NCBI GenBank assembly: GCA_963700285.1
Contig: CAVOXA010000013.1
Coordinates: 1 to 31,918, forward strand
Length of the DNA stretch: 31,918 nucleotides
Reading direction: 5' to 3'
Source of the DNA: an uncultured Chloroflexia bacterium
Lineage (GTDB): Bacteria > Chloroflexota > Anaerolineae > JAAYZQ01
In this document: piece after piece, positions 2,159-27,630 of the stretch
Layout: every line of letters starts with the position of its first letter
Numbering within the stretch: position 1 is the first letter of the stretch
Translations under genes and position numbers: made by a program
Notes under the pieces: model-generated
The model's input: the letters and a program-made list of their open reading frames with translations, nothing else
Database searches by the model: none
What the model was told of the DNA's origin: nothing

Positions 2159-2308
2159 ATGATCGGCTTAGCCCACGGCCACGACGATCTCCTCATCTCC
2201 GCCGCCCTCTGCTCTATCCTCGACCAGCAGGACTGGCCAGGCACCGGTACCGCCGAGATCATCCACCGCCAGGATCCGCTGGACGAAATCGACCACACGA
2301 GTTGGTAG
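2159..2308 (+). pseudogene. C-terminal fragment of a phage terminase large subunit-like protein
   Basis: Not in the ORF track. It translates as MIGLAHGHDDLLISAALCSILDQQDWPGTGTAEIIHRQDPLDEIDHTSW*. HDDLLISAAL matches the last catalytic Asp motif of terminase RNase H-like nuclease domains. It shares the strand and C-rich codon style of the portal gene. Confidence 0.65.
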
Positions 2309-4447: not shown

Positions 4448-5299
4448 CTATATGCTCAAGAGCCAGTCATGATCCACGGTGACCTGCTCAATCTCAACCT
4501 TCTCGGTCCGAACACCTAGAGCCAAGTCCTGCAACTTGTCGACCAGTTGGTCTCCGTCAATCAGATCAATGGCAGGAGCACCATCTCTCGTGGCCTCTCT
4601 CACCGCCTCCTTGGAGAAAGTCCCCGTCGTGATCAGGAGTCCTTTGTCAGCACGCCCCACCATCGCGCCGCGGAAGTCACGCACCTCTCCAGCACCCACT
4701 GTACCCTGCCATCGCTTGCACTGAAAGATCACGTGGAAACTCAGCAGACCGCCGAGTCTCATGATACCCTTCCCGTCGATGCCTCTGTCTCCACTCCTCC
4801 CGGTGACTTCCACCTGGACAAATCCGGACTCTCGCAGCATCCTTTGGGCCAGTCGTTCAAAGGCAGACGCGTCCATCTGGATCAACGTACTCAACAGATC
4901 CTCGCGCCAAGACTCGGCAGCCTCGGCTTCGCCCAGCTCTTCCTCGGCTGACGCCTTGGCTTCCCTCATCAGCTCTCGAACTACGCGGACGACATCCTTC
5001 TCATCCACGGTCTCGACCTTTCTGCCCGCTTGGGCTAGTGCCCAGACGCCTCTGGTCGAGTTTTCAAGCACACCATACTTCTTCAAGTAGGTACGAGTCC
5101 ATGCCAGCCGGTAGTCAATCTCTGTCATACCGCCTTTTTCGGGGTTGTGCAAGACCTCCAGCTGTTCATCTGTGAAGCCGGCGATCTCTGCAACCTTGTC
5201 GTTGATCTCCTCGATGGTGCCGGAGCCCCCAAGTTCCCGAAGTGCCTGGATCACGGGGTTCATCATTGAGTCGTATGTCGGCATCGCAACCATGCTCAC
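4448..5299 (-). CDS. mrr: Mrr-family type IV restriction endonuclease (Mrr_N + Mrr_cat)
   Basis: N-terminal PTYDSMMNPVIQAL...YRLAWTRTYLKKYG...RGVW, and catalytic region GRSGDRGIDG...QCKRW...VRDFRGAM...LIDG. Confidence 0.93.
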   Translation of the reverse strand: MSMVAMPTYDSMMNPVIQALRELGGSGTIEEINDKVAEIAGFTDEQLEVLHNPEKGGMTEIDYRLAWTRTYLKKYGVLENSTRGVWALAQAGRKVETVDEKDVVRVVRELMREAKASAEEELGEAEAAESWREDLLSTLIQMDASAFERLAQRMLRESGFVQVEVTGRSGDRGIDGKGIMRLGGLLSFHVIFQCKRWQGTVGAGEVRDFRGAMVGRADKGLLITTGTFSKEAVREATRDGAPAIDLIDGDQLVDKLQDLALGVRTEKVEIEQVTVDHDWLLSI

Positions 5300-5412: not shown

Positions 5413-5425
5413 CTTTCTGTAGTCT

Positions 5426-6722
5426 CAGTAGATCCAAATTTCATGGTATAGGCACTGCCGGTGCGACGATTTCATGAACGCAACCGTATCGATGCTCTAT
5501 CGCCCGAACGATGAATCTCGCAAAGCGAGTTAGCGAAAACCGCCGGGTGTCCAGCTGTCGACGCCCAGGTCGCGGCACTTGTGTGTAGAGCCAACGCAGA
5601 TGCAACCAAACGTTCAACAAAAAGAAGCTCAGGCCGATCAGCACAAAGCGCAAAGCCGGGTTCTTGGAGGTCGTCCAAGCTCGAACTTGGCCAGCGCAGC
5701 GATAGCTGGTTTCCACACCGAACCGACGACGATACGAGCGGCGTGCTTGGCGCGGCGTCAGGTCAAGGTTGATCAGGATAAACAGCAACCAGCCAGCGCG
5801 TCGTTTCATCCGTCCTGTCCGTTTGGCCGTGGAGAAGACCCGACAGACGGCTACCTCAGCCGTGAACTGCTTTTTCTCTGCGGTATTGCGGAAGGTGTGC
5901 GTCGTACGGTAGCTCTTGTTACCCTGACACAAAGCACGAGTGCCGCCTGTACGACCGCGGATCGTACAGGCGATGAGAGCGGGCGTCCCGCTCTGCTCGA
6001 GATAGGTCTGGACATCGATACCGGCAAAGCCTTTGTCCAAGAACAAGCATTTTATGCCTATTCCAATCTCCTTAACGCGCTCCAGCAGTGTCTTCAAGAC
6101 ACCGACGATGCTGTCGGTGGGCAGAAAGAAGTGAAGGGCCAGGGTCACCCGCAGCCCGCGCTGGATCACGTAGGCGGTGGCAATCCGGTAGAAGCGGGTC
6201 GTGCCGTCCTTGGCTCGGCTGCGAACCCACAGCCCCTCTTCTTGAGATGTCTTGCCGTAGTAGGGCCGGTCATGCAGGTCGATGGCCATGTCCTGGGCCT
6301 GACGCCACAGGCGTTTCGGAACTTGAGCCGCCAACGCCTCATTCAGGTTGCGTTCCAGTTCTGGCAGTCGCTCGGTCGTCAGTTGCTCGTTCAGATATTG
6401 GCGAACGGTCTCAGCACCAGGTCCACTGCTCAACTCAGCACAGGCAGATTCGATCGTGCACTGCCGGGCGGCTGCTGTCAACAGGATGTTCAGCAGGTCG
6501 TCCGTTGTACATTTGTAGCCCTCTGCCTGCAACGGCAGATGAGCCTGAAGACCTTGGCGTGCGTGTTCCAACACTTGATTAGCCGTCAACTTTGGTGTAT
6601 CATTCATCCTGGGCTTGCTCTCCTTGAATTGTTTGTTCGCAACTTACAGTTTACAAGGATTGGGCAAGCCCATCAACTTTTATGTCCGTAAATGCATTAT
6701 GCCCACAAAATTGGATCTACTG
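5426..6722 (-). mobile_element. Complete ISH3-family insertion sequence (1297 bp)
   Basis: Terminal inverted repeats CAGTAGATCCAA (5426-5437) and TTGGATCTACTG (6711-6722). The 5-bp target duplication AGTCT is at 5421-5425 and 6723-6727. CAG ends and an A...T 5-bp DR are ISH3 hallmarks. Confidence 0.92.
5441..6607 (-). CDS. ISH3-family DDE transposase
   Basis: Intact 388-aa ORF with motifs AIDLHDRPYYG, LFLDKGF and YRRRFGVETSYR. Confidence 0.92.
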   Translation of the reverse strand: MNDTPKLTANQVLEHARQGLQAHLPLQAEGYKCTTDDLLNILLTAAARQCTIESACAELSSGPGAETVRQYLNEQLTTERLPELERNLNEALAAQVPKRLWRQAQDMAIDLHDRPYYGKTSQEEGLWVRSRAKDGTTRFYRIATAYVIQRGLRVTLALHFFLPTDSIVGVLKTLLERVKEIGIGIKCLFLDKGFAGIDVQTYLEQSGTPALIACTIRGRTGGTRALCQGNKSYRTTHTFRNTAEKKQFTAEVAVCRVFSTAKRTGRMKRRAGWLLFILINLDLTPRQARRSYRRRFGVETSYRCAGQVRAWTTSKNPALRFVLIGLSFFLLNVWLHLRWLYTQVPRPGRRQLDTRRFSLTRFARFIVRAIEHRYGCVHEIVAPAVPIP

Positions 6723-6754
6723 AGTCTCTCCTCATATTACGACTCCGAAGCAAC

Positions 6755-6783
6755 TTGACATGCTAGGACAAGTGTCGTATAAT
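6755..6783 (+). promoter_or_regulatory. Perfect-consensus sigma70 promoter upstream of the portal gene
   Basis: TTGACA (6755-6760), 17 nt, TATAAT (6778-6783). Confidence 0.85.
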
Positions 6784-6788
6784 GCTAG

Positions 6789-6815
6789 CGAACAACTGTT
6801 CGCAACATCTGTTCT
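6789..6815. promoter_or_regulatory. Tandem LexA (SOS/Cheo) boxes
   Basis: Perfect CGAAC-AACT-GTTCG (6789-6802) plus imperfect GCAAC-ATCT-GTTCT (6802-6815), over the expected +1. The same motif class lies upstream of uvrB. Confidence 0.8.
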
Positions 6816-6835
6816 ACGGCACGGAAGCGGAGACC

Positions 6836-8278
6836 ATGCCACCAGACCAGCCGTCACTGAAAACCCGCCTGGCCCACGCCCTCTTCGGCGACATAATCCA
6901 GACCGCCGTCGCCGAGGCCACTGCCGCCATCTCCGTCCGCGTCGACGACGCCCCCGGCTGGAACCGCCTCGCCCCCGCCGGCCCCCACGACCGCGACTTC
7001 GCCGAGTGGTACCAGGACCAGGAAGACGCCCTCGAAGCCTGGCGCAAGAACTTCTCATGGTCCGCCGCATCGTCACCCTGGCCCGCTCCTACGTCCTCGG
7101 TGCCGGGCGGCGGAGTCACCATCAGCAGCGACCACGCCTACCTCCAGTCCTTCGTCGCCGCCTTCGCCGCCCACCCCAAGAACCGCCTGGCCGAGCGCTA
7201 CGGCCCCATCTGCGACGAGCTCACCCGCGCCGGCGAGATCTTCCCCGTCCTCTTCACCAACCGCGTCGACGGCATGAGCTACCTCCGCTTCGTCCCCGCC
7301 ACCCAGATCCACCACATCGAGACCGACCCCGACGACTACGAGACCGAACTCGCCTACCTCGGAACCTCGCAGCACCGATCGAACCTCGAACCCAAAACGC
7401 TGGCTCGGCGTCGACAACCCCGCACGCCTGGGAAGTCTGCCACAGACGGAACCCTGCCCGCCCGTCATGCTCCACTTCGCCGTCAACCGGCCCATCGGCG
7501 CCACCCGCGGCGAGGGCGACCTCGCCCCCATCCTCCGCTGGGCGCTGCGGTACTCCAACTGGCTCGAAGACCGCGTCCGCCTCAACCGCGTCCGCACCCG
7601 CCAGCTCCTGCTCGAGATCGATCCGACTAGCGGTCGCCGACGACACCCGCGTCGCCGAGCGCAAGCGCCAGGTCGAGACCGAAGACCCCGTCCGCGCCGG
7701 CATCTACGTCCACGGCCCCGGCGAAGAGGTCACGCGCCCACTCGCTCGACATAAACGCCGACGACGCCGCGACCGACGGCAAGCAGCTCCGCCTGGCCGT
7801 GGCCACCGGCGCCAACACCGCCCTCCACTACCTCGGCGAGGGCGAGGCCACCAACTATGCCACCGCCCGCGAGATGGGCGAGCCCACCGCCCGCTTCTAC
7901 ACCGAGCGCCAGGCCGAGCTGTCCCGCATGCTCACCCGCCTGGTCCAGGTCGCCTACGACCGCAAGGTCGCCCTGGGCCTGGCCCGCAAGCCTGCCAGCG
8001 AGGACTATGGCATCACCGTCGCCGTCACCGAGACCGCCCGCGCCGACAACGCTGCCCTGGCCGAGGCCGCCCGCGACATCGTCCAGGCCCTGTCCGACAT
8101 GCGCGCCCAGGGCTGGATCGACGACGCCACCGCCATCCAGCTCGCCTTCAAGTTCGCCGGCGAGCCCATCCCCCAGGAGGAGATCGAGCGCATCCTTGAA
8201 GCCTGTGGCGAGCGAAGCGAAGCCAACCCTGCCCTGGACCGTAGCCAAGAGCCAGCCGCCGATGAACCCGAAGCCTGA
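6836..8278 (+). pseudogene. Phage portal-like protein with multiple frameshifts between ~7050 and ~7750
   Basis: RBS GGAG + ATG 6836. Joined frames give ...EAWRKNF/MVRRIVTLARSYVLG...HPKNRL...DELTRAGEIFPVL...MLHFAVNRPIGATRGEGDLAPILRW...HYLGEGEATNYATAREM...AFKFAGE, resembling Chloroflexota prophage portal proteins. Confidence 0.75.
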
Positions 8279-8636
8279 CCCGCCGCCCGAGGAGGAACCG
8301 CCCGATGAACCACCCGTCCCGATCCCGTTCCCCTGGTTTCCCTGGTACCCGTGGCCACCGGGCACCCAGCCGCCGCCCAGCCTCCACCTCGAGTACCACA
8401 ACGCCAACCCCAACCCGCGCCGCGTCTGCGGCATCTGCCAGGCCGACATCGGCAAGGTCTTCCGCCTCGAAGACGCGCCCAGGCTGCCCCGCCACCCGCA
8501 CTGCTACTGCTTCTACGTCGTCACCGACGCGCCAGTCACCAAGGAAGGAAACACGCCCATGACCGGCCGCGCCGAGCCAGCTTGCACCGGCCATCTCCCC
8601 ATCTCCCCCTCACCCCCTCGCCCCATCGAACCCTGA
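8262..8636 (+). CDS. Small phage head morphogenesis-like protein (Mu gpF/SPP1 gp7 C-terminal motif) with a Pro-rich N-terminus
   Basis: Overlaps the end of the portal gene. Motif RVCGICQ...G..F.....P.LPRHPHCYC. Confidence 0.65.
   Translation: MNPKPDPPPEEEPPDEPPVPIPFPWFPWYPWPPGTQPPPSLHLEYHNANPNPRRVCGICQADIGKVFRLEDAPRLPRHPHCYCFYVVTDAPVTKEGNTPMTGRAEPACTGHLPISPSPPRPIEP
8591..8627 (+). repeat. Degenerate 8-bp tandem repeat
   Basis: ccatctcc ccatctcc ccctcacc ccctcgcc ccatc. Confidence 0.55.
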
Positions 8637-8767
8637 CCTCGGCCTCAACCCTTAGCGCTGCAAGGCGCCTCATTATGCCCAAAGACGCCCCGATCCAGAG
8701 CGAACAATCCGAAAATCCCGCCAGCCCGATACCCCTGCCAATCAGGCCCACGCACGCACCGGGTCAT

Positions 8768-8839
8768 CCACGAATGTTGGCCACGAATACACGAATGGTG
8801 GCTGTGGGGCACAATCGATTATTCCCGGTTAATTCGTGT
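8768..8839. repeat. CACGAAT short repeats with one inverted copy (REP-like)
   Basis: ccacgaat at 8768 and 8781, acacgaat at 8789, and inverted attcgtgt at 8832-8839. Confidence 0.5.
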
Positions 8840-8884
8840 GAACAGGGCTACCGAGGGTAACTACCGCACTGTTATCATTTCAAG

Positions 8885-8913
8885 TTGACAAAAATACACT
8901 GAATACGTATAAT
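8885..8913 (+). promoter_or_regulatory. Perfect-consensus sigma70 promoter for the large secreted protein
   Basis: TTGACA (8885-8890), 17 nt, TATAAT (8908-8913). Confidence 0.85.
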
Positions 8914-8995
8914 TAGCCTTGTTTTACTTTGTCGCCAGCCCAGGCAGTTTAGCGAGCCTGGATAGCATCCACTGAGGAGCAGGAAGGACGGAATC

Positions 8996-11900
8996 ATGAC
9001 CCGCATTTCCACCGCTTGCATTGGACCCTTGCTCGCGCTGACCCTGATCGTCACCGCTGTCGTGGGCCCCATCAACCGCCGGGCCGCTCTGGCCCATCAG
9101 GGGCCCCAGCGTACCACGCCGGCCGTGGAAGCTCCAGCTCGCCCCGCGAATCCCAGTCCTGAGGCCCTATTGCGGACACTGGACCAGATGCCTCTCAGCT
9201 TCGAGGCCAATCAGGGTCAGTTCGCCACGCCTGTGCATTTTACCACCCGCCAGGCTGGCGGCATTTTCTTCTTCACTACCCACGAGATGGCGGCGGTGTT
9301 CCGCCGGACAACGTCCGACTCTGCTCTAGCGGAGGATCTGGAGATAGAGGGCGAAGGGGAGGGGTCGTTGCCGTACCTTGAGTCCGAAACCCTCGCCCTC
9401 AAGGTCCACTTTCTTGGCGCCTCCCCCACGGTCGAGATAGAGGGACTGGACCCTCTGCCCGGCAGGGTTAACTACTTCAGCGGCAGCGACCCAGTCCACT
9501 GGCAACAGGCCGTGCCCACCTACGCCACCATCCTCTACCACAATCTCTATCCCCACACTGACCTGCGCTACTCCGGCGTGGGCGGCCGGCTCAAGTACGA
9601 CTTTCTCCTGGACCCAGGGGCCGAGGTAGACCGCATTGCCCTGGCCTACACCGGGGTGGAGGGATTGGAGCTCAACGGCGCGGGCCAACTGCAGGTCAGG
9701 ACCGCCTGGGGCACCCTGGTGGAAGATGCCCCCCTCGCCTGGCAGGAGGGCGAGGCGGGGCGCCGCGAGCCGGTCGCCGTGCGCTACCGGCTCCAACCAG
9801 GTGACATTGTGGGCTTCCAGGTGGGCGCCTATGATCCTGCCCGGCCTCTGGTGATCGACCCCACGCTCCGCTACGGCACCTATGTCGGAGGCGGCAGTGT
9901 TGAGCACGGCCGCGACATTGCGGTCGATGGCGAAGGGAACGTTTTAGTCACTGGCTCCACCCAATCCTCCGACTTTCCCACAACGGCCGGGGCCTTCGAC
10001 CGCAACCGCGCCGCCGGCCAGGACGTCTACGTCCTCAAGCTGGCGGCGGACGGAAGTGGTCTGCTGTTCAGCACTTTTGTAGGGGGTAAGGAGAGCGAGT
10101 CGGGCTTTGGCCTGGCCCTGGATGGCGATGGGAATCCCGTGGTCGTCGGCTGGGCCTGGTCCTCGGACTTTCCCACTACTTCCGGGGCTCACGACACCAG
10201 CTATGGTGGGAACAGGGACGCCTTTGTGTTCAAGCTGTCGGCCGACGGCAGCAAGCTGCTGTTTAGCACCTTTGTAGGCGGTAGTGAGCGCGACGCCATC
10301 TATCCGGTGCAGGTTGATGGCGACGGGAACGTCATCCTCACCGGCTATACGCTTTCCACAGACTTTCCCACAACCGCTGGGGCCTACGATGGCACCCACA
10401 ATGGTGACAAGGAGATCATCGTCTGTAAGCTGTCCCCAGATGGGAGCGAGCTGCTGTTCAGCACCTTTGTTGGAGGCAAGCACATGGACCTTGGCCGCCA
10501 CATTGTCCTCGACAGCGCGGGCAACTATGTCGTCACTGGCTACACCTGGTCCTCCGACTATCCCACCACCCCTGACGCCTATGACCGCACCCACGGTGGG
10601 GGAGAGCGCGACATGTTCCTCCTGAAACTGTCCGCTGACGGAAGTACGTTGCTGGCCAGCACCTACGTCGGGGGCAGCGGTGATGAACGCGGCCGTGGCT
10701 TGGCGCTGGATGGGCAGGGCAATCCCGTCATCGCCGGCTATACCAGCTCCTCCAATTTCCCCACCACGCCTGGCGCATACGACACCACTTACGGTGGCGC
10801 ATACGACATCTATGCCCTCAAGCTATCGGCCGACGCCACCACGCTACTGTACAGCACCCTGGTCGGCGGCAGCCAGAACGACTATGCCCGCGGGATGGAT
10901 ATGGACGCCTCGGGCAACATCTTTGTCGTTGGGGATTCCTACTCGAGCAGCTTTCCCACCACCCCTGATGCCTTTAGCACCAAAGGCAATGGAGGTCTGG
11001 ACGCAGTTGTCCTGAAACTGTCGCCGGATTTTAGTTCCCTGCTTTACAGCACCTTTGTGGGGGGCAGCGGTGAGGAGCAGGGACACGAACTGGCGCTAGA
11101 CGGGAAGACCGGTGTCGTGATCACCGGCCACACCAAGTCCAGCAACTTTCCCACCACCTCCGGCGCCCATGATCGCACCTACAACGGCGACCAGGACCTG
11201 TTCGTCTTCTACCTCGACGGGCTGACCGGGCAGGGGCACACTTTGACTGTAAACGTCTCCGGCAGCGGCACCGTGACCAGGGACCCGCACAAGTCCGCCT
11301 ATCAACCCGGAGAGCAGGTCAAGCTGACGGCCAGCCCCAGCCCGGGCTGGGGCTTCTCCGGCTGGTCGGGCGACCTCTCCAGCAGTGCCAATCCGGCTAC
11401 CCTCACCATGGATGGCAACAGGTCCGTTACCGCCACCTTCACTCAGAATCAATTCACCCTCTCTGTCAACGTCTCCGGCAGCGGCACCGTGACCAGGGAC
11501 CCGCACAAGTCCGCCTATCAATCCGGAGAGCAGGTCAAGCTGACGGCCAGCCCCAGCCCGGGCTGGGTCTTCTCCGGCTGGTCGGGCGACCTCTCCAGCA
11601 CCGCCAACCCAGCCACCCTCACCATGGATGGCAACAAGTCCGTCACCGCCACCTTCACCCAGGACCAATACACCCTCTCCGTCAGTGTCTCTGGCAGCGG
11701 CTCGGTGGCCAAGTCGCCCGACCAGGCGGGTTACCACCATGGCGACCAGGTCCAACTCACTGCCAGCCCCAGCGCCGGCTGGACCTTCACTGCCTGGTCC
11801 GGGGACCTGACTGGCGCCGAGAATCCGGCCACCCTCACCATCGACGGCACCAAGTCCGTCACCGCCACCTTTGGCCAGAATGGGTACACGCTGACCGTGA

Positions 11901-12613
11901 ACGTCGATGGCAGCGGTTCCGTGAGCAGAGCCCCGGAGCAGGCCATCTACGTGCTCGGCGAAGAGGTGCAGCTCAGCGCCACCCCAGATCCTGGCTGGTC
12001 GTTCTCCGGCTGGTCCGGCGCCCTGACCGGCGCTGAGAATCCGGCCACCGTCATCATCGGCGGCGACGAGATCGTCACGGCTGCCTTCACTCAGAAAGAG
12101 CACACCCTGACTGTGAGCATCACCGGCAGCGGGGACGTGACCAAGGCGCCCGATCAGGCCAGCTACCATTACGGCGACCAGGTCCAGCTCACCGCCAGCC
12201 CCGGCGCAGGGTGGCTCTTTGCCGGCTGGTCCGGCGACCTCTCCGGTGGTGACAACCCGGCCAGCCTAACCATCGACGGCGACAAGGTCGCAACCGCCAT
12301 CTTTGGACAGACGTGCCACACCTTGAGCACGGAGGCCAGCCCCGAGGAGGGCGGCTCAATCAGTGTCGACTATGACCCCAATTGCGACGACGCTGGCGTC
12401 GCCAAGTACGTTATTGGCACCGTCGTCCAACTGACCGCCAGCCCTGCCCCGGGCAGGTTCTTTAGCCACTGGAGCGGCGACGTCACAGGAAACGCCAATC
12501 CCACCAGCCTGTCTGTGAGCGCGGATGCCTCGGTCCTTGCTCACTTCCAGGAGACGCAGATCCTATTCCTGCCCATGCTCCTGACGGGGCCATATTCGCT
12601 GTCATTCCCTTGA
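8996..12613 (+). CDS. Large secreted/surface protein: N-terminal beta-rich domain, 7 SBBP beta-propeller repeats, 6 InlB-B-like repeats, Chloroflexota-type C-terminal sorting tail
   Basis: Signal peptide and LSFEANQGQ...PLVIDP N-domain. Seven T(F/Y/L)VGG...D..G...FPTT repeats, six TL.V...GSG.V...F.GWSG repeats, and the terminal ILFLPMLL. Confidence 0.9.
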   Translation: MTRISTACIGPLLALTLIVTAVVGPINRRAALAHQGPQRTTPAVEAPARPANPSPEALLRTLDQMPLSFEANQGQFATPVHFTTRQAGGIFFFTTHEMAAVFRRTTSDSALAEDLEIEGEGEGSLPYLESETLALKVHFLGASPTVEIEGLDPLPGRVNYFSGSDPVHWQQAVPTYATILYHNLYPHTDLRYSGVGGRLKYDFLLDPGAEVDRIALAYTGVEGLELNGAGQLQVRTAWGTLVEDAPLAWQEGEAGRREPVAVRYRLQPGDIVGFQVGAYDPARPLVIDPTLRYGTYVGGGSVEHGRDIAVDGEGNVLVTGSTQSSDFPTTAGAFDRNRAAGQDVYVLKLAADGSGLLFSTFVGGKESESGFGLALDGDGNPVVVGWAWSSDFPTTSGAHDTSYGGNRDAFVFKLSADGSKLLFSTFVGGSERDAIYPVQVDGDGNVILTGYTLSTDFPTTAGAYDGTHNGDKEIIVCKLSPDGSELLFSTFVGGKHMDLGRHIVLDSAGNYVVTGYTWSSDYPTTPDAYDRTHGGGERDMFLLKLSADGSTLLASTYVGGSGDERGRGLALDGQGNPVIAGYTSSSNFPTTPGAYDTTYGGAYDIYALKLSADATTLLYSTLVGGSQNDYARGMDMDASGNIFVVGDSYSSSFPTTPDAFSTKGNGGLDAVVLKLSPDFSSLLYSTFVGGSGEEQGHELALDGKTGVVITGHTKSSNFPTTSGAHDRTYNGDQDLFVFYLDGLTGQGHTLTVNVSGSGTVTRDPHKSAYQPGEQVKLTASPSPGWGFSGWSGDLSSSANPATLTMDGNRSVTATFTQNQFTLSVNVSGSGTVTRDPHKSAYQSGEQVKLTASPSPGWVFSGWSGDLSSTANPATLTMDGNKSVTATFTQDQYTLSVSVSGSGSVAKSPDQAGYHHGDQVQLTASPSAGWTFTAWSGDLTGAENPATLTIDGTKSVTATFGQNGYTLTVNVDGSGSVSRAPEQAIYVLGEEVQLSATPDPGWSFSGWSGALTGAENPATVIIGGDEIVTAAFTQKEHTLTVSITGSGDVTKAPDQASYHYGDQVQLTASPGAGWLFAGWSGDLSGGDNPASLTIDGDKVATAIFGQTCHTLSTEASPEEGGSISVDYDPNCDDAGVAKYVIGTVVQLTASPAPGRFFSHWSGDVTGNANPTSLSVSADASVLAHFQETQILFLPMLLTGPYSLSFP
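11252..11683 (+). repeat. Near-identical 216-bp intragenic tandem duplication (B-repeats 1 and 2)
   Basis: Copies start aacgtctccggcagcggcaccgtgaccagggacccgcacaagtccgcc at 11252 and 11468. Confidence 0.9.
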
Positions 12614-13005
12614 CTCCAGATCCACTCAAGAAAGACTGGGCCAGTCTGTTTCCCGTTCCGCGGGCAGGTGACTGTGTATACACTACCGGGATCAGGTTCA
12701 AGGTACAACCGAATGGCATGCAGGCCCATTTCAAGGTTCCTCCCTACGAATGCTCTATGCTACCACAGAACCGCGAGGAACAGCAAAAGGACCGCCTGGA
12801 GCGCCTGGAGCGGTCCGCCGGCTTCATGCACTTGTTTTGGTCTTGTCGATGATGGCTGACGCAAAGCTCGCATTGTTGTTCACCTGGAGCCGGTAGCGGT
12901 TTGCCCCCTGTGTTGCAGGCCATTCAAAGATGGGTCTTTCTCATGGCTCCTGCTGCCATTCACGGGGGATGAAGGCTCCGGCGCCGGCCCATAGTTCGCT
13001 GTTGG

Positions 13006-13128
13006 TCCTGTGAAGAAGAGCATATCATCAACGGCGGTCAGTTTCTTGGGCCATGAGTCTTCTTCAAAATAGTACAGACACTTTGTCGGCACTGTACCGG
13101 AATCGGTGCCATCGCTCCCCCAGAGCTG
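13006..13128 (-). pseudogene. Remnant of an ELWxxDGT-repeat protein
   Basis: Translation QLWGSDGTDSGTV...SWPKKLTAVDDMLFFTG matches one ELWxxDGT repeat unit. Confidence 0.6.
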
Positions 13129-13141
13129 AGTTGATCTGCTC

Positions 13142-13170
13142 TTGACAGATTCGAACGTTTGTGCTACAAT
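13142..13170 (+). promoter_or_regulatory. sigma70 promoter with an imperfect LexA box in the spacer; no large ORF immediately downstream
   Basis: TTGACA-17 nt-TACAAT, with CGAAC-GTTT-GTGCT at 13152-13165. Confidence 0.6.
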
Positions 13171-13390
13171 AGACGAGTAGAGAGGCATGACAGTGCCAAT
13201 GTGCTTGCTGCTAGACAGTCATGCAGGAGAGAATTGACCCGAACACGCTCCCCATCCCGATGTTGAACCCGAAACAAAAAGATCCCGATGCCCGGGTGCC
13301 ATCTGTTGTTGTCGCCTTTCTCAACATCAGCAACATGATCCTTCAACGTGATACATGAGACCAGCACAAGTATCCTTTTTAACCGCAGTG

Positions 13391-13399
13391 TGGTATAAT
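13391..13399 (+). promoter_or_regulatory. Extended -10 element upstream of the MATE-like gene
   Basis: TGgTATAAT, ~75 nt before ATG 13474. Confidence 0.55.
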
Positions 13400-13473
13400 C
13401 CCGCCTATTCTGCGACCCCCTGCCGGCCTGCCTTGAGGGCACGAGCAGAGGGCCACAAGTACCGGACCAACGC

Positions 13474-14790
13474 ATGACCACAAAAAAAGCACCCAGTCAT
13501 ATGCCCGACACGGAGCCGACCCTTCGCCAGATGTTGGCCCTATGGCTTCCCCTGGCCGCCAGCATCGCCATGATGGTCCTCGAACCCTCCGTCATCAACA
13601 TCGGCTTGGGACGTACAGCCGATGCTGAACTGGCTCTGGCTGCCTATGGCGTGGCTTTCAGCCTCGCCCTATTGGTCGAAGCGCCCATCCTCATGCTCCT
13701 CGACGCCTCGGTAGCTCGGGCCACGGACCGGGCGGCCTTTGGTCTGATCCGGCGTTTTGCCCTGGCTCTCGGGCTCATTGTAACTGCGATCGGATTGGTC
13801 GTCTCACTCAGCCCTCTCTATGTGCTGATAGTCGAAGGGCTGATGAACATCCCGACCAACATTGCCGCCGAGGCCCGTCCGACCTTGCAGATACTTGCCT
13901 TTTGGTCTCTGCCCATCGCCTGGCGACGGGCCAACCAGGGTGTGCTGATCCGCTTGCGAAAGACGACCAGCATCAGCGTGGCCACCGCTGTCCGCCTGGT
14001 CACCCTGGCTGTGGCCCTATTCCTGGGCATGTCTCTTCTGCCTGAGCAAGGGGCGGTGGTGGCTGGCTTGGCCATGGTGCTCAGTGTCACCGTCGAAGCA
14101 GCCCTCATCACTGTGTCTGTGCAGTTTGTGCTCCGGTCCGGTGATCTCCCTGCAGACGCTTCCGAAACCGATCAACCTGCCCTCACCTTGCGCGGGCTCT
14201 GGCGCTTCTACCGGCCCCTGGGTACGACGACGATTCTGCGGCAGACGACCCGGCCCGTGCTCAACGCTGGCATCGCGGCCGCCAGTCTGGCCGTCGCCTC
14301 CCTGGCCGCCTGGCCCGTGGTCTGGGGTTTTGCCATGCTGATCACCGGTCCGGCCTGGAGCTTGCAGCAACTCACCACCGCCCTTGCCACGGACCAGATC
14401 GCCTATCGCCGCGTGCGCCGCTTCTCGCTGAGCTTGAGCGTGATCATGGCCCTCACCTTGGGCCTGGTTGCTTTTACGCCGCTCTATGGCATGGTGATGG
14501 GCGGCATCTACAATCTGTCGCCCGAACTTCAGGCGCTGGCGCGGCCGGCCATGCAGCTCCTGGTCATCTATCCCCTGGTGATGGGTTCGCAGTCTCTGCT
14601 CCGTGGCGTGCTCATCCGTACGGGCCGTACGGGAGCGGTCCGGTCAGCGATGACGGCCAACGTCCTGACACTCGCCGGGATGGTACTGGTGGGCATCGTG
14701 TTCCTGTCACCCACCGGCGTACTTCTGGCCGCCGGCGCCACGCTGGCCGGAGCCCTGGTAGAATTGGCCTGGCTGCGCTGGAGGGCCTAG
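13474..14790 (+). CDS. MATE/ANKH-like multi-pass membrane transporter
   Basis: About 12 hydrophobic segments in two homologous halves (LWLPLA / FYRPLG; LAAYGVA / LAAWPVV). Confidence 0.8.
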   Translation: MTTKKAPSHMPDTEPTLRQMLALWLPLAASIAMMVLEPSVINIGLGRTADAELALAAYGVAFSLALLVEAPILMLLDASVARATDRAAFGLIRRFALALGLIVTAIGLVVSLSPLYVLIVEGLMNIPTNIAAEARPTLQILAFWSLPIAWRRANQGVLIRLRKTTSISVATAVRLVTLAVALFLGMSLLPEQGAVVAGLAMVLSVTVEAALITVSVQFVLRSGDLPADASETDQPALTLRGLWRFYRPLGTTTILRQTTRPVLNAGIAAASLAVASLAAWPVVWGFAMLITGPAWSLQQLTTALATDQIAYRRVRRFSLSLSVIMALTLGLVAFTPLYGMVMGGIYNLSPELQALARPAMQLLVIYPLVMGSQSLLRGVLIRTGRTGAVRSAMTANVLTLAGMVLVGIVFLSPTGVLLAAGATLAGALVELAWLRWRA

Positions 14791-14937
14791 TGCATGCTCG
14801 AGACTGATGGTTTGAATGCACAGGTCGCGCCGGCCTGGAAGAGCCAGCGCTATGCCTGAAACCACAAGACTATGGCTAGCACCGCCTGTTTCACGGCGGT
14901 GCGGTCCTGCCTTCGGAAGACTCCTTCCCTGGCGGTA

Positions 14938-14987
14938 TGGACAAATGGCCCTGCAACGGCTATAATACCCACACGAACCTTCGTTCT
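14938..14987 (+). promoter_or_regulatory. uvrB promoter and LexA box
   Basis: TGGACA-17 nt-TATAAT (14961-14966), with CGAAC-CTTC-GTTCT at 14974-14987. Confidence 0.85.
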
Positions 14988-15000
14988 ATAGGGGGAAACG

Positions 15001-17022
15001 ATGCCCGATTTTCAGGTTGTCTCTGATTTCCAGCCGATGGGCGATCAGCCGCAGGCCATTGATCTACTGGTCGACGGCTTGGGCCGGGGCTATCAACATC
15101 AGACACTGCTAGGCGCCACGGGAACCGGCAAGACCTTTTCCGTGGCCAAGGTCGTGGAACGGACCCAGAAACCAACGCTGGTGATGTGCCACAACAAGAC
15201 GCTGGCGGCCCAGCTCTACTCCGAGTTTCGCCAGTTCTTTCCCCACAACGCAGTCGAGTATTTTGTCTCCTACTATGATTACTACCAGCCGGAAGCATAT
15301 CTCCCTCGCACGGACACCTACATCGAGAAGGATGCCGACATCAACGAAGAGATCCAGAAGCTTCGCCTGGCCGCCACGGAAGCCTTGATGACCCGGCGCG
15401 ATGTGATCATTGTCGCCAGCGTATCGGCCATCTACAGCCTTGGTTCGCCCGAGGAGTATGGGCGTGAGGTGGTTGAACTGCGTATGGGGGAAACCCGTCG
15501 CCGTGCCTCGGTACTGCGCCACCTGGTGGCCATCCACTACGACCGCAACGACGTGGCCTTCAAGCGCGGTACCTTTCGCGTACGTGGCGATACGCTGGAC
15601 ATCTTTCCGGCTTACCGTGACACGGCCATGCGGGTCGAATTCTGGGGCGATATGGTGGACCGCATCACCGAGATCGACCCCCTCACCGGCGAGATCCTGG
15701 ACGAACGGCAGTCGATCCAGATCTACCCGGCCAAGCACTTTGTCACCCGTGCCGAGGAGATGACCGAGGCCATCAAGAACATCGAGGCCGAACTGGAGGA
15801 GCGCCTGGCCGAGCTTCGCGCCCAGGACAAGCTGCTGGAGGCCCAGCGCCTGGAGCAGCGTACCCTGTACGACATTGAGATGATGCGCGAGATCGGCTAC
15901 TGCTCGGGCATCGAGAACTACTCCCTGCACCTCAGCCACCGCGAGACCGGCGCCGCACCCTGGACCCTGATCGACTACTTTCCCGACGATTATCTGCTGG
16001 TCCTCGACGAAAGCCATATGACGGTGCCGCAGATCCGCGGCATGTACAATGGCGACCGGGCGCGCAAGGAGGTGCTGGTCGAACATGGCTTTCGCCTACC
16101 CTCGGCGCTGGACAACCGGCCCTTCCAGTTCCGCGAGTTTGAGGAGCGCATCAACCAGGTGATCTATACCTCGGCCACGCCGGGGCCCTACGAACAGCAG
16201 ATGTCAGCTCAGGTGGTTGACCAGATCATCCGTCCCACCGGTCTGGTGGACCCGGAAGTGATCATCAAGCCGACCAAAGGGCAGGTGGATGACCTGCTCG
16301 GCCAGATCCGCAAGCGGACGGAGCGGGGCGAGCGGGTGCTGGTAACGACCCTGACCAAGCGGATGGCCGAGGATCTGGCGGACTACCTGGCCGAACTGGG
16401 CATCAAGGTTCACTACCTCCACTCGGAGATTCAGACCTTGGAGCGCGTAGAGATCTTGCGTGACCTGCGCCTCGGCGTGCACGATGTGGTGGTAGGCATC
16501 AACCTGTTGCGCGAGGGCCTGGACCTTCCGGAGGTCTCGCTGGTGGCCATCCTCGATGCTGACAAGGAGGGTTTCTTGCGCTCTGACACGGCCCTCATCC
16601 AGACCATCGGGCGAGCCGCCCGGCACGTCAACGGCCAGGTAATCATGTACGCGGACCGTACCACGGACTCGATGCAGCGGGCCATTGATGAGACGAATCG
16701 CCGCCGGGCCGTCCAGGAGAAGTATAATGAAGAACACGGCATCAGCCCCGAGAGCATCGTCAAAGAGGTTCGCGATCTAACCGACCGAGTGCGCATGGTG
16801 GCAGAGGAACGGGCAGAATACCGCCTCACAGGCGATCTGCCCCAGGCTGAAGTCACCTACCTGATCGGCGAGCTGGAGGCGCAGATGAAGCAGGCTGCCG
16901 CGAACCTGGAATTCGAGAAGGCAGCCCTGCTCCGCGATCAGATCTTTGAACTGCGCAAGCAGTTGGAGGACGAGGCCGTGCCCGAGTGGGAGCGGATCTG
17001 GAAAGAGAGCCGCAAGCGGTAG
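15001..17022 (+). CDS. uvrB: Excinuclease ABC subunit B
   Basis: [44 protein letters not shown], and a C-terminal UVR domain (FEKAALLRD). Confidence 0.99.
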
Positions 17023-17154
17023 GCTTGAACCAACTTGCGCCTGTTACCAACCCTGGCCCACCTCCTGCGAAGATGTCTCGACCTGAACCTCATCCGAGCT
17101 ATGGTTCACAGATCCCTGGCCAGCCACAGCCCTGGAATTCCGGTTGTCTCACCC

Positions 17155-18207
17155 CTAGGCTGCTTGAAGGACGGCCCTGGCCGCATCCAGCGCTTGGTCA
17201 ATGTCTTCAGCCGTGATGCCATAATGGGTCACAGCGCGAAAGCGACTGCCGCCTATGGCCCCGACCTTGACCCCTCGCGCTGCCAGGCCGGCATGGAACC
17301 TTGCTGGCTCAGGGCCTTCGGGCGCTGTCTCAAAGATGACGAGGTTGGTCGGGACCCGGTCCAGGTCCAGCACGATGCCGGGCAAAACGGCCAGCCCCTC
17401 CGCCAGCTTGTGGGCGTTGGCCTGGTCCTCAGCCATGCGGTCGACCATGGTTTCCAGGGCCACGATACCGGCTGCAGCAAGCACGCCTGCCTGTCGCATG
17501 CCGCCTCCCAGCAGCTTGCGCTGCCGCCGTGTTTCCGCGACGAACGGCGCCGGGCCGCACACCAGCGCTCCCACCGGCGCGGCCAAACCCTTGGATAGGC
17601 AAAACGTTACCGAATCCGCATCGAGGGTGAGGTCAGCCACGGGTACGCCCAGCGCTACGGCCGCGTTAAACACCCGCGCCCCATCCAGATGGACGGCCAG
17701 GCCATGGCGGTCCGCCAGGGCGCGGACCTGGCTCATGTACGCAGGGGTGAGCACGGCCCCGCCGCAGCGGTTATGCGTGTTCTCCAGGCAGATGAGCCGG
17801 CTGTGGGGATGATGCGGGTTGTCGGTCGGCCGGATAGCCGCTTCGATGTCGGCGAGGTCAAGCGTGCCGTCGGGCTGGTTGGGCACCGTCCGGGGGTGGA
17901 TGCCGCCTACGGCAGCAGCACCGCCCGCCTCAAAAAGAAAAGTGTGGGCCATGTGGCCCATGATCGCTTCCTGGCCCCGCTGGCAGTGGGCCAGCAGGCA
18001 GACCAGGTTGCCCATGGTGCCGCTGACCACGAACAGTCCGGCCTCCTTGCCCATACGTTCGGCCGCCATTGCTTCCAGGCGATTGACTGTGGGGTCTTCA
18101 CCCATCACGTCATCGCCAAGTTCGGCCTCGAACATGGCCTGGCGCATGGCGGGGGTGGGCAGGGTTACTGTGTCGCTCCGCAGATCGATGAATCTCGAAG
18201 GCTCCAT
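17155..18207 (-). CDS. ltaE: Low-specificity L-threonine aldolase
   Basis: IDLRSDTVT, GDDV.GEDPTVN.LE, LENTHN, HLDGAR, PLP-lysine CLSKGL and GGGMRQAG. RBS AGGAGG precedes ATG 18207. Confidence 0.95.
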   Translation of the reverse strand: MEPSRFIDLRSDTVTLPTPAMRQAMFEAELGDDVMGEDPTVNRLEAMAAERMGKEAGLFVVSGTMGNLVCLLAHCQRGQEAIMGHMAHTFLFEAGGAAAVGGIHPRTVPNQPDGTLDLADIEAAIRPTDNPHHPHSRLICLENTHNRCGGAVLTPAYMSQVRALADRHGLAVHLDGARVFNAAVALGVPVADLTLDADSVTFCLSKGLAAPVGALVCGPAPFVAETRRQRKLLGGGMRQAGVLAAAGIVALETMVDRMAEDQANAHKLAEGLAVLPGIVLDLDRVPTNLVIFETAPEGPEPARFHAGLAARGVKVGAIGGSRFRAVTHYGITAEDIDQALDAARAVLQAA

Positions 18208-18253
18208 TGCGTTCTTCCTCCTATGTTGAAGGGACTGGCGTTCTTCCAGGGGC

Positions 18254-18282
18254 ATTGTACTGCAACATCAACAAGTTGGCAA
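18254..18282 (-). promoter_or_regulatory. sigma70 promoter of ltaE
   Basis: Minus strand TTGCCA-17 nt-TACAAT. Confidence 0.65.
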
Positions 18283-18319
18283 GAAACCCACGCCCACAGC
18301 ATCCATTCGGCCCCGAGCT

Positions 18320-18428
18320 GTCATTCCCGCGCAAGCTTGGCCCGAGTAGATCTACCCTCCGGGAGTTGCACCTTGGGAACCAACCGGTTTCAATCGGTCA
18401 TTCTCCGCATGCTCCTGGCGGGAATCCA
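18320..18428. repeat. Degenerate REP-like palindromic element
   Basis: GTCATTCCCGCG (18320-18331), a second GTCATTC at 18397, and GCGGGAATCCA (18418-18428). This resembles the GTCATTCCCGCG...GCGGGAATCCA class of short palindromic repeats. Confidence 0.55.
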
Positions 18429-18458
18429 CGTGAGCCCGGCCTCCAGCAACCTGAAACC

Positions 18459-18487
18459 TGGACTTTTCGGATCAGATGCGCTACAAT
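18459..18487 (+). promoter_or_regulatory. sigma70 promoter of the MFS-amidohydrolase-GNAT operon
   Basis: TGGACT-17 nt-TACAAT. Confidence 0.55.
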
Positions 18488-18566
18488 CCGACAGCGAACG
18501 CTGTCAAGGAGGCAGCGCCATGGTTGCTGCAAGGCAGAAAGTCATGTACTCTCCAAGGACGCCCCT

Positions 18567-19817
18567 TTGAGCGATAGCTTGCCGAATATACGCGGGTCTG
18601 CCCGTACGACCACCTGGCGTCTGGTAGCAGCCGGGATGGCGCGCCTATTCCTCAACACAGCGCTGCGCATGGGCTACCCATTTGCGCCAGCGCTCAGCCG
18701 TGGACTGGGTGTGCCGCTCACCTCGATGACCTCGGGTCTCGCCCTCAGCCAGTTGACCGGCTTCTTTGGTATCATTACTGGGCCCATGGCCGATGGCTGG
18801 GGCCGGCGACGGATGATGCTCGCCGGGATGACCATGCTTGCTGGCGGCATGCTGGTTGCGGCAGCCCATCCAACCTTTGTGACCGTGCTGATGGCCCTCT
18901 TTCTAGCTGGATTGGGCAAGACCTTCTTCGACCCGGCGCTAAAGGCCTACGTCGGCGATTGGATTCCCTACGAACGCCGGGGGCGGGTCATGGGCGTTCT
19001 CGAGTTCTCCTGGGCAGCGAGTCTGCTGTTCGGTATCCCACTCGTCGCCCTGTTGATAAGCCGCTTTGGATGGCGGTCTCCTTTTTTTCTCCTGGGTGCT
19101 GCCGGCCTGGTGAGTGCAGCCTCCATACTATTGCTGTTCCCTCGGGGACGCCTGCGGGCGCAGTACTCGGGAGTCGCGGCAGGCCTTCTCAGTGCCTGGC
19201 AGCACCTGGCTGGCGAACCGGCGGCCCTCTGGGTACTTGCTTCCAGTGTGTTGGTCGCCGCAGCCAACCTCGCTCTCTTTGTCGTCTATGGCGCTTGGAT
19301 GGAGCAGTCTTTCTCCTTGAGCATTGTTGCGCTTGGAACGACCGGCTTGCTCATTGGCCTCAGCGAGTTGTTGGGCGAAAGCCTCACCGCCTTAACCTCT
19401 GACCGGATCGGTCTGAAGCACGCGCTCCTCATCGGCTCGGCCCTCCTGGTCGGCAGTTACTGTCTGTTGCCCTGGTTTGGCCACAGCCTGTCGATGGCCC
19501 TGGCGGGCTTGTTCATCGTCTTTGTCTGCTACGAGTTCGTGGTCGTCACCGCAATGTCCCTATCCACCGAGATACTGCCTCATGCGCGCGCGACGATGAT
19601 ATCGGCGCTCATTGTGGCCAGTAGCCTTGGCCGTGCGGTGGGCACCGCTGGTGGGGCACTGGTCTGGGAGGAGGGCGGGCTGCTGGCAATCAGTATCGTC
19701 GCAGCAGTGATCACGGCGTTCAGCTTGTTGTGTTTGGTCTGGGGGCTGCGCAATTGGCACCCCGAGAGCGCACTCTCTCCCCCGGAGCCTGGGGGTCTCG
19801 AGGAGGATCTGGAATGA
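18567..19817 (+). CDS. MFS transporter (start approximate, TTG)
   Basis: Motif A GPMADGWGRR and SDRIGLK, plus ERRGRVMG and about 12 TM segments. Confidence 0.9.
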   Translation: MSDSLPNIRGSARTTTWRLVAAGMARLFLNTALRMGYPFAPALSRGLGVPLTSMTSGLALSQLTGFFGIITGPMADGWGRRRMMLAGMTMLAGGMLVAAAHPTFVTVLMALFLAGLGKTFFDPALKAYVGDWIPYERRGRVMGVLEFSWAASLLFGIPLVALLISRFGWRSPFFLLGAAGLVSAASILLLFPRGRLRAQYSGVAAGLLSAWQHLAGEPAALWVLASSVLVAAANLALFVVYGAWMEQSFSLSIVALGTTGLLIGLSELLGESLTALTSDRIGLKHALLIGSALLVGSYCLLPWFGHSLSMALAGLFIVFVCYEFVVVTAMSLSTEILPHARATMISALIVASSLGRAVGTAGGALVWEEGGLLAISIVAAVITAFSLLCLVWGLRNWHPESALSPPEPGGLEEDLE

Positions 19818-21202
19818 CCGATATTCTCATCAAGAATGGCACCATTGCCACAATGGATCAGCAGGCTAATGTCTACCAAAACGGCAGCCTGTACGTCAAG
19901 GATGGCAGGATTGTCGCGGTAGGAGAGCAAGTGGATGTCTCTGGCAGTCCGGATCACATCATTGATGCGGAACACAAGGTCGTTCTCCCCGGCTTTGTGA
20001 ATGCCCACGCCCACCTCCAGCAGTACTTTCGGGGCGTCTATGAGCTGGTCGGCGAGTTCTACAAGGTCAATCTTCCCCTGGAAGGGTACCGCCGTCCCGA
20101 AGACATGGAATACCTGGGCCTCGCCTCTTGCGCCGAGTTCATCTATGGCGGCTGCACCACGGCCATGGTCATCTATACGTACCCTGACGGTTTTGCCAAG
20201 GCCGTGGAACAAGCCGGAAACAGGGTCATCCTGGCTGCCGACATCGAAGAGGTTGATCTCGACCGGCTGGGGCAAGGTGTCTATGAGTATCTGCCTGAGA
20301 AAGGAGAGGCTGCCTTCGAGCGTGCCCAGGACCTTTACCGAAACTGGCATGGGAAAGCAGGTGGCCGCATAACCACCATCATGGCGCCCAAAGCTTCGGA
20401 TCTGGCTCGGGCCGAAACCTACCTGAAATGCCAAGAGTTTGCGCAGAGGCACGGCCTGAGATTGACCACACACCTCTCCCAGAGCTGGCGTGAGGTCAAA
20501 CAGGTGGAGGAGCTGTATGGCAAGACGCCGCCCCAGCATCTGCACGACCTGGGCATTCTCGACGAACAATTGACCGGTGCTCACTGTACTTACGCTACCG
20601 AGCTGGATACCCAGCTTATCGCAGAGGCTGGCATGGGCATTCTGCACTGCCGATCCGTCACCAATCCGCTCGTCCGCTGGATGGACATGGGCATACCTGT
20701 TGGCCTGGGAACCGACGACTACCACCACGACATGCTCCAGCTCCTGAGGGAGAACCTGGCGGGCCAGGCCGCGCGCGCCCGGCTCATCGAAGGGGCCGAA
20801 GAGATGCTGGCCAGTGACCGGCGTACCTCCCGGCCCAGCTTTTACGAACTCCTCGAGCTGGCTACCCGGCGTGGCGCAGAAACCTTGGGCATCGACGGAG
20901 AGGTGGGCTCCCTGGAGCCAGGCAAAAAGGCCGACATCATCACCATCAACATGCAGAACCCCTACCTGACGCCCACCCTGGATCCCCTCACCAGTATCGT
21001 GCTGTATGGTTCTTCGCGGGATGTTGACACGGTCATCGTGGATGGGCGTGTCCTCAAGAAAGATGGAAACCTCACCAGCCTGGATCTGAAGGAGGCGCTG
21101 GCCACCGGTCAGGCGAGAGTCGAGCAGATCATTGGCAGGTTCTTTCAAGAGCATCCTGATCAGAAAAGCGCCTGGCTGCGCAGGGTCCCGTATTTGGGGT
21201 AG
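19814..21202 (+). CDS. Metal-dependent amidohydrolase (MtaD/AtzA/guanine deaminase-like)
   Basis: ATGA overlap with the MFS stop and RBS GGAGG. Motifs PGFVNAHAH, HLSQ, AHC, LGTD and GSLEPGKKAD. Confidence 0.92.
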   Translation: MTDILIKNGTIATMDQQANVYQNGSLYVKDGRIVAVGEQVDVSGSPDHIIDAEHKVVLPGFVNAHAHLQQYFRGVYELVGEFYKVNLPLEGYRRPEDMEYLGLASCAEFIYGGCTTAMVIYTYPDGFAKAVEQAGNRVILAADIEEVDLDRLGQGVYEYLPEKGEAAFERAQDLYRNWHGKAGGRITTIMAPKASDLARAETYLKCQEFAQRHGLRLTTHLSQSWREVKQVEELYGKTPPQHLHDLGILDEQLTGAHCTYATELDTQLIAEAGMGILHCRSVTNPLVRWMDMGIPVGLGTDDYHHDMLQLLRENLAGQAARARLIEGAEEMLASDRRTSRPSFYELLELATRRGAETLGIDGEVGSLEPGKKADIITINMQNPYLTPTLDPLTSIVLYGSSRDVDTVIVDGRVLKKDGNLTSLDLKEALATGQARVEQIIGRFFQEHPDQKSAWLRRVPYLG

Positions 21203-21232
21203 CCTGCCCGGTTCGCCAAGCACGTCTGTGGA

Positions 21233-21787
21233 GTGAGCGTGATGAGCATCATCCGACAAAATCTGCCCCTCACCATGGTACGGGACAACCTCGAGGGAAT
21301 CCCTCGCCATGGCCTGCCTGTTGGTTATTCGATGCGGAGGTACCAGCCGGGCGACAAACGCCTTTGGGAAGAGATCCACCGCCTGGCCGATCCGTACAGC
21401 GCCATCGCCCCTCACCTCTTCGGCCAGGAGTTTGGGCCTGACGAATCAGTGCTGGCAGAGCGCCAATTCTACCTCCTGGACGCTCGGCAGCGGGCGATTG
21501 GCACGGCCACCGCGTGGTACGATGACGACTTTGAGGGAGTGGGCTATGGTCGCGTTCACTGGGTAGCCATCGTTCCAGAGTACCAGGGCCAGGGGTTGGC
21601 CAAGCCGCTAATGGCGGCTATCTGCTGCCGGCTGCGGGAATTGGGGCATGAGCGCGCCTATCTGAGGACCTCTTCCGCCCGCATTCCGGCCATTCATCTG
21701 TACCTGCGCTTTGGCTTCATTCCCTTGATCGATGGACCTGACGGACTCGGGCTCTGGCGACAACTTGAAAAAGAACTCGGGCGGTGA
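21233..21787 (+). CDS. GNAT-family N-acetyltransferase
   Basis: Acetyl-CoA motif VAIVPEYQGQGLAK and AIHLYLRFGF. Confidence 0.9.
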   Translation: MSVMSIIRQNLPLTMVRDNLEGIPRHGLPVGYSMRRYQPGDKRLWEEIHRLADPYSAIAPHLFGQEFGPDESVLAERQFYLLDARQRAIGTATAWYDDDFEGVGYGRVHWVAIVPEYQGQGLAKPLMAAICCRLRELGHERAYLRTSSARIPAIHLYLRFGFIPLIDGPDGLGLWRQLEKELGR

Positions 21788-21892
21788 GCGCCTGTGGTTG
21801 GACGATGCGGTGATGGTATACCTTCCTCTGTTCCGCATCCCGTCCCGCTCTGCTGTGGGAGGGCCTTTGGTGCACATCTCCAGGCTTGCCCA

Positions 21893-27628: not shown

Positions 27629-27630
27629 CT

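Follow-up and report, generated by a model that had tools for sequence, protein, structure and literature searches.

Why should phage head genes in a bacterial chromosome stand behind a promoter that seems to belong to the SOS system of the host? The question arose from a stretch of 31,918 nucleotides, here called the window, which is the entire contig C13 of an Anaerolineae assembly (G000) and a 96% sister of part of its contig C1. A sequence-only reading had proposed a host-controlled, split head or packaging module in Chloroflexota. This held for the family to which the locus belongs, which is split, boxed, vertically inherited and poor in integrases, but not for the window locus, a truncated copy. 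We favour, with somewhat more confidence than doubt, the explanation that the window carries a truncated second copy of a vertically inherited kit of phage origin, predicted to be LexA-repressed, which in its intact form likely makes small particles packed with host DNA after damage. The window's own copy is of little importance; the interest lies in the family-wide kit.

Table 1. Features of the module and its surroundings in the window (positions in nucleotides of the 31,918-nt stretch).
Feature	Position	Strand	Remarks
terL scrap, last 45 codons of large terminase gene	2171-2308	+	remainder deleted here
Mrr restriction endonuclease	4448-5299	-	within an insertion of about 4.5 kb that separates terL from portal
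IS element with terminal inverted repeats	5424-6724		weak DDE_Tnp_1 match, ORF 5441-6607 on minus strand
Consensus sigma-70 promoter TTGACA-17-TATAAT	6755-6783	+	17-nt spacer
Perfect LexA-type box CGAAC-N4-GTTCG	6789-6802		covers predicted transcription start; 5 nt behind -10
Second box, core	6803-6814		one mismatch; abuts first box
Portal gene	6836-8278	+	ATG at 6836; five frame changes in this assembly; pieces match phrog_10963
Small minor-head (head morphogenesis) ORF	8262-8636	+	CxxC and HPxCxC motifs; matches minor-head families
Deletion breakpoint	8559-8568	+	homology to contig C2 of G001 ends at 8568
Host promoter and intact beta-propeller/InlB-repeat gene	8885-12613	+	right boundary, outside module
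Exact box core in uvrB promoter	14975-14986		internal control

The promoter was found as it had been described, with perfect -35 and -10 hexamers ahead of the portal gene and a perfect box right behind them. The reported second box is present about 20 nt before the portal ATG, but it is imperfect and abuts the first one rather than overlapping it. Perfect sigma-70 promoters are common in this genome (119) and only three of them carry an exact box; thus the box and not the promoter carries the information. Exact GAAC-N4-GTTC cores occur twice in the window, in the portal promoter and in the uvrB promoter, so that the latter, as had been suggested, serves as an internal control. Elsewhere in G000 the motif is found in the promoters of lexA, of one of two recA genes and of two recA-like genes. 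A LexA motif of the Gram-positive type is in use in Chloroflexota. Because the promoters of lexA, uvrB and recA have the motif in common, it is the predicted LexA site of the host, and on these grounds very likely the actual one. GAAC-N4-GTTC-type motifs are known as the Gram-positive LexA motif (PMC3323433).

Two observations concern the SOS genes of G000. Its full recA genes are at C10:720719, without a box, and at C10:1823368, with a box. Behind lexA at G000:C9:95001-96626 (L028, L030) stands another gene for a LexA DNA-binding domain, whose own promoter contains two perfect boxes. In the window, 30 bp separate the -35 of the portal promoter from the IS element upstream. That the IS supplied this -35 was ruled out, since copies free of the IS share an identical -35.

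What follows this promoter is incomplete. The locus had been read as phage portal and head genes. A portal and a minor-head gene are indeed there, but the portal is split by the five frame changes and a capsid gene is absent from the window. In related phage contigs the minor-head domain is the start of a protease-capsid ORF, and a longer copy on contig C2 of the related genome G001 continues past the breakpoint into protease-capsid sequence. Upstream of copies that match the window locus G001 has longer pieces of terL. The copy on its contig C13 represents an earlier state with terL, inserted genes (Mrr in the equivalent position), a promoter with both boxes kept, and portal; the IS is missing there and from contigs of two sediment runs. 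Window-type copies number three, each truncated at a different point, and one, differently truncated, is on contig C1 of G000. The earlier statement that no integrase, repressor or replication gene is visible agrees with a Pfam scan of 39 of the 136 listed window ORFs, in which none of these domains was detected.

The frame changes of the portal were compared with short-read contigs of near-identical strains from two runs. These match 7037-7234 with one mismatch and 7526-7835 with five, and at four of the five breaks in the frame they lack the added bases; the fifth, near 7370-7390, is outside the compared segments. Therefore, the frameshifts may be assembly artefacts, and they may be due to polishing or be real decay. 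Generic long-read error was considered as a cause and fits poorly, because nearby host genes are intact and the inserts, 1-10 nt in length, are at sites common to the G001 copies. Short, unlike insertions at identical sites were seen in three portal copies from two assemblies (window 7054-7745, L324 and L325); these are either polishing chimeras or repeat-derived insertions. Whichever way the frameshifts are read, the window copy is truncated. We are rather sure that it is a remnant and, to judge from its genes, it most likely yields no particle alone.

Could portal and minor-head gene nevertheless be a working stand-alone SOS operon, e.g. a second portal for the head encoded on contig C22 or a device for satellite-like interference? 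The strong promoter and its boxes are intact, the short-read contigs are free of the extra bases at four of five breaks, and the window portal compared with two G001 copies gave dN/dS values of 0.17-0.21. However, the three window-type copies are cut at three different points, and on C2 of G001 the box is degraded. We consider this explanation very improbable.

Two further observations were made on the window. Positions 8024-22487 and G000:C1:1303941-1318410 represent the same region in two forms, C13 and C1, with about 180 small indels clustered at 13.9-17.4 kb, where the window genes are intact. The minus strand of 21893-31742 encodes an NRPS cluster, in part fragmented, whose domains are TubC_N docking, condensation, adenylation, carrier and thioesterase.

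A fuller gene set is on contig C22 of the same genome. Behind a boxed promoter, 14.5 kb encode portal, protease-capsid and adaptors as well as a lysin-like piece and tail proteins. The terS-terL pair is 64 kb away from this portal set on the opposite strand; its promoter is homologous to that of the C22 portal, but has a weaker box. Both C22 loci share their host flanks with G001. The C22 genes are also frameshifted in this assembly. G000 (89% complete) has a single capsid gene, the one on C22, and scraps of a second gene set are on C5, C9 and C10. The terminase belongs to a divergent family which was detected only with relatives as queries; Pfam Terminase_6N had no match anywhere in the genome. 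Among the matches listed for G000 there was no large serine recombinase. Judged by integrase, repressor, replication genes, a full virion and one contiguous block, neither the window nor C22 is an intact excisable temperate prophage. For a 475-residue C22 protein the single-sequence fold had a pLDDT of 37 and was not used; an atlas link to P22 gp10 (0.88) was taken as a lead only.

Copies of the C22 promoter are dispersed in G000. One at G000:C1:90282-93190 (L334) is boxed and precedes three genes, of which one resembles terS, one encodes a replisome organiser and one has a weak integrase match; this region may be satellite-like or a dispersed early module. Another at G000:C10:1421190-1424170 (L335) precedes a broken primase-polymerase close to type I restriction genes. 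A second adaptor and tail gene set is at G000:C10:1947000-1951830 (L336), where an internal window-type promoter with a perfect box precedes the last two genes.

The relatives of the portal were collected with a seven-sequence portal alignment as query; the best 80 of 313 matching GTDB stretches and the best 80 of 381 IMG/VR stretches were taken. The family is present in 88 of 401 genomes of the class Anaerolineae, nearly always as a single copy. In the phylum it was found in 61 of 301 genomes (the unpublished G691 is counted in this tally alone), near all-or-none by family: 22/24 and 6/8 versus 0/20, 0/19 and 0/18. Cultured carriers are, by record, Bellilinea caldifistulae (L062), Leptolinea tardivitalis (L070), Anaerolinea thermolimosa (L083) and Thermanaerothrix solaris (L090). 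The best named matches of the portal are to unrelated phages at 24-28%. The usual gene order is box, terS, terL, portal, protease-capsid (PF25209), holin, GH25 lysin, adaptor and tail tip, in a module of typically 10-12 kb flanked by host genes; holin and GH25 lysin are present in many modules.

TerL accompanies the portal in 34 of 45 portal-positive genomes versus 2 of 17 portal-negative ones, and of the 11 portal-positive genomes without it four have a terminase of a second type. Its motifs, which we take to be of the ATPase and nuclease type, are invariant. PDB searches with TerL and adaptor profiles gave nothing useful, the TerL profile matching no PDB chain. One conserved tail protein (pLDDT 87) resembles distal tail proteins (Dit) with an inserted carbohydrate-binding domain, and its neighbour resembles baseplate hubs. 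Sheath, tube and tape-measure families were not seen among the conserved module families in a scan without profiles dedicated to them. Thus, phage-derived head, portal, terminase and tail genes are on the chromosome in the family, and the window copy has no capsid and just a scrap of terL. In many Anaerolineales the module is beside Tad/Flp pilus genes, upstream or downstream of them (L054, L058, L061, L062, L064, L070, L072, L075, L081, L088, L100, L107 and L110). The f2 loci (L212, L213, L215) have a lone portal with no capsid gene within 12 kb; here a common motif, without a box, precedes both portal and terL.

Conservation of the upstream box among Anaerolineae portal homologues, as expected for host control, was borne out for most of them. 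A box is located at most 4.5 kb upstream of the portal at 45 of the 60 GTDB loci with enough flank versus none of 65 downstream windows; for IMG/VR loci the figures were 7/27 versus 0/36 controls. Automatic calling placed it at at least 44 of 93 module heads versus 3 of 358 flanking genes, and as the caller missed some visible boxes the former value is a lower bound. The box stays at the module head when the gene order differs. Around separate or duplicate terminases 11 of 20 regions have a flagged box upstream of terL, and a perfect core is found at all five f32 terminase loci. In these (L314, L315, L316, L317, L318) a sigma-70-like gene follows terL in the boxed operon and the portal/capsid operon is unboxed, an arrangement suggestive of a possible two-step cascade. 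There is no box in f2 and none at the f57 terminase loci, and 23 of 25 loci, mostly from outside Anaerolineae, have none within 1.5 kb of the portal. Therefore, the LexA link holds for most, not for all, Anaerolineae.

Is the kit inherited with its hosts? FastTree trees were calculated from 70 of 80 genomes searched for RpoB, and RpoB splits with a support of at least 95 were regarded as strong. Portal recovered 28 of 38 strong splits, TerL 26 of 33 and capsid 25 of 37; shuffled trees recovered about 0.1 on average and 3 at most. Strong conflicts with RpoB numbered 6, 4 and 10, respectively. Over 13 close pairs dN/dS was 0.005-0.30, mostly 0.1-0.2, and dS in general did not exceed that of rpoB; together with the values for the window copy this agrees with the predicted purifying selection. 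In the single-contig genomes G161, G346 and G095 portal and TerL are 55, 59 and 135 kb apart. Among the matches listed for these genomes there is no integrase within 300 kb, the nearest tyrosine recombinase is more than 330 kb away and large serine recombinases are absent. Each of 26 Anaerolineales picked from 44 has one portal, and in 2/26 an integrase is within 30 kb, a count among the matches listed with the view limited by contig ends. Such criteria have been used for alphaproteobacterial GTAs (PMC5721377, PMC5026251), with the caution that congruence is not proof of vertical descent (PMC5721377). The argument for domestication is built on congruent trees, single copies, split loci and purifying selection, all read from sequence. 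The genomic signature of the family is that of a domesticated, GTA- or PBSX-like kit, and we think it probable that in most lineages the kit is kept by the host.

The family also has mobile members. By gene content, as far as the contigs reach, L129 and L134 are intact temperate prophages, in which serine integrase, repressor pair and Rep precede the late genes; both nest inside the host-embedded f49 clade. L114, L121 and L117 carry recombination, DnaD or primase genes. A box precedes terS in L134 and in L117, an IMG/VR contig with primase. Direct control by host LexA had been proposed as a mark of domestication. By itself it is not such a mark: because some phage contigs of the family carry the box too, LexA control is insufficient as proof, and the box may have been inherited from a phage. 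Homologues in complete mobile prophages had been named as evidence against domestication. L129 and L134 look like such prophages, whereas the modules of G161, G346 and G095 are split with no integrase nearby. Integrases are 3-26 kb from the portal in G238, where one is 3 kb upstream, G376, G286, G395, G429 and G419, and f52 has kept a repressor pair and Rep. Hence the suggested absence of integration and replication genes applies, among the matches listed, to G161, G346, G095 and 24 of 26 Anaerolineales, but not to G238, f52 or L129/L134.

The portal of the window belongs to a clade with 100% support in which many contigs carry genes for Erf, excisionase, Rep, DnaD or primase. It is sister to its C22 paralogue (99%) inside a 20-row clade with L114, L117 and L121, and it conflicts with the RpoB tree in that G001 groups with G376. 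Since the window portal is in a phage-rich clade off the host tree, this genus, as far as the trees indicate, most likely acquired its kit from a phage, and at a later time than the other lineages. Vertical inheritance of the portal, as proposed, is thus general enough to recover most strong RpoB splits, but the window's genus is an exception.

These relatives bear on a different explanation: the family would consist of small temperate phages of narrow host range whose late promoter is repressed by LexA, and the chromosomal copies, that of the window included, would be decaying grounded prophages. L129/L134 would be the complete-looking mini-prophage, replication genes adjoin the nearest relatives of the window, a replisome-organiser homologue stands behind the matching copy on C13 of G001, and several copies in G000 and G001 are broken. 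In addition, dS between window-type copies is 0.10-0.14 versus 0.35-0.37 for Mrr and rpoB, which may reflect recent spread. For the window copy alone this explanation may well be right. Yet it does not account for whole families with a single intact copy in each genome, for congruent trees, for dN/dS near 0.1 at host-like dS, or for splits of 55-145 kb with host genes in between and boxes kept on the split pieces. For the family we regard it as rather unlikely.

How might a domesticated kit operate? DNA damage would activate RecA, LexA would be cleaved and the boxed promoters would fire. A terminase without a preferred phage genome would cut chromosomal DNA and pack it through the portal, and adaptor and tail-tip proteins would close the head. 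Where present, holin and GH25 lysin would accomplish release. In f32 the unboxed capsid operon would be activated by the sigma-70-like protein whose gene follows terL. The genus of the window would have obtained its kit from the phage-rich branch and hold two copies; the one on C22 appears complete but split, and the one in the window would have lost terL, capsid and tail in place.

That the kit transfers genes may be considered from its gene content, though we lean slightly against it. All genomic evidence for domestication fits equally with an SOS-controlled kit that does not transfer genes and acts as a PBSX-like killer particle, as a decoy or as a route for lysis and DNA release. PBSX, although it packs host DNA, works in the manner of a bacteriocin (PMC7667829), and a lysis function is encoded in many modules. 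Against a killer particle, sheath, tube and tape-measure families are missing from the conserved module families scanned, the tail genes look like a Dit-like protein plus hub-like tip or like a P22 gp10-like hub, and the terminase motifs have remained invariant. We regard a kit without gene transfer as distinctly unlikely. Returning to the packaging kit, its boldest form would be a GTA of Chloroflexota's own which is of sufficient age to track the Anaerolineae tree, is wired directly into the SOS regulon with boxes copied to every piece at splits, and is time and again re-captured from living LexA-boxed mini-phages. We entertain this as a tentative proposal, somewhat less likely than not. If true, host DNA would be delivered for repair exactly when the chromosome is broken.

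A literature search, from which supplementary prophage and GTA tables that may list such loci were left aside, returned no description of this system and no Chloroflexota GTA. For one Anaerolineales genome a 6.3-kb 'incomplete prophage, head' has been listed (PMC8597652), which may be this module; the accessible part of PMC9377139 does not mention it. Because production would be tied to damage, direct LexA control would put the idea that GTAs serve DNA repair to a test. A single family with phages still alive as well as split forms on chromosomes would make the steps of domestication visible. Further, many short 'viral' IMG/VR contigs of the portal family may be host modules.

Among known systems VSH-1 of Brachyspira is induced by mitomycin. 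It is a GTA encoded at two chromosomal loci (PMC5026251). It is from another phylum, and its likeness to the Anaerolineae kit is one of locus layout. PBSX of Bacillus subtilis forms a single block (about 28 kb), encodes a long contractile tail and is under an Xre repressor of its own. It does not excise, is inducible by mitomycin and packs random 13-kb host fragments (PMC7667829). The Anaerolineae kit, as read from its genes, is likewise a phage-derived, non-excising cluster; it differs by a size of 10-15 kb, frequent splitting, host LexA boxes and a stub tail. In SaPIs operon I/terS is directly repressed by host LexA. In tectivirus GIL01 host LexA directly represses phage genes at P1-P3 (review PMC13492144). 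These LexA-repressed phage promoters match the boxed phage contigs L117 and L134; however, such elements replicate and are mobile, whereas most chromosomal Anaerolineae modules are without replication and integration genes.

The RcGTA type of Alphaproteobacteria is also alike, with phage head and packaging genes in several loci, purifying selection, largely vertical descent and rarely an integrase next to it (PMC5026251, PMC5721377). These properties recur in most lineages of the Anaerolineae kit. RcGTA has a dedicated sigma-like activator, GafA (PMC6363796), to which the sigma-70-like gene of f32 may be compared. The phylum is a different one and the genes appear unrelated, and the Anaerolineae kit is known from genes alone. 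Its protease and capsid are fused, tube and tape measure were not seen, and mobile phage relatives persist. In RcGTA LexA acts indirectly through CckA (PMC6363796), and the Caulobacter GTA is controlled by the LexA-like RogA (PMC9632790). In contrast, the box of the Anaerolineae kit sits directly on the promoters of structural and terminase genes.
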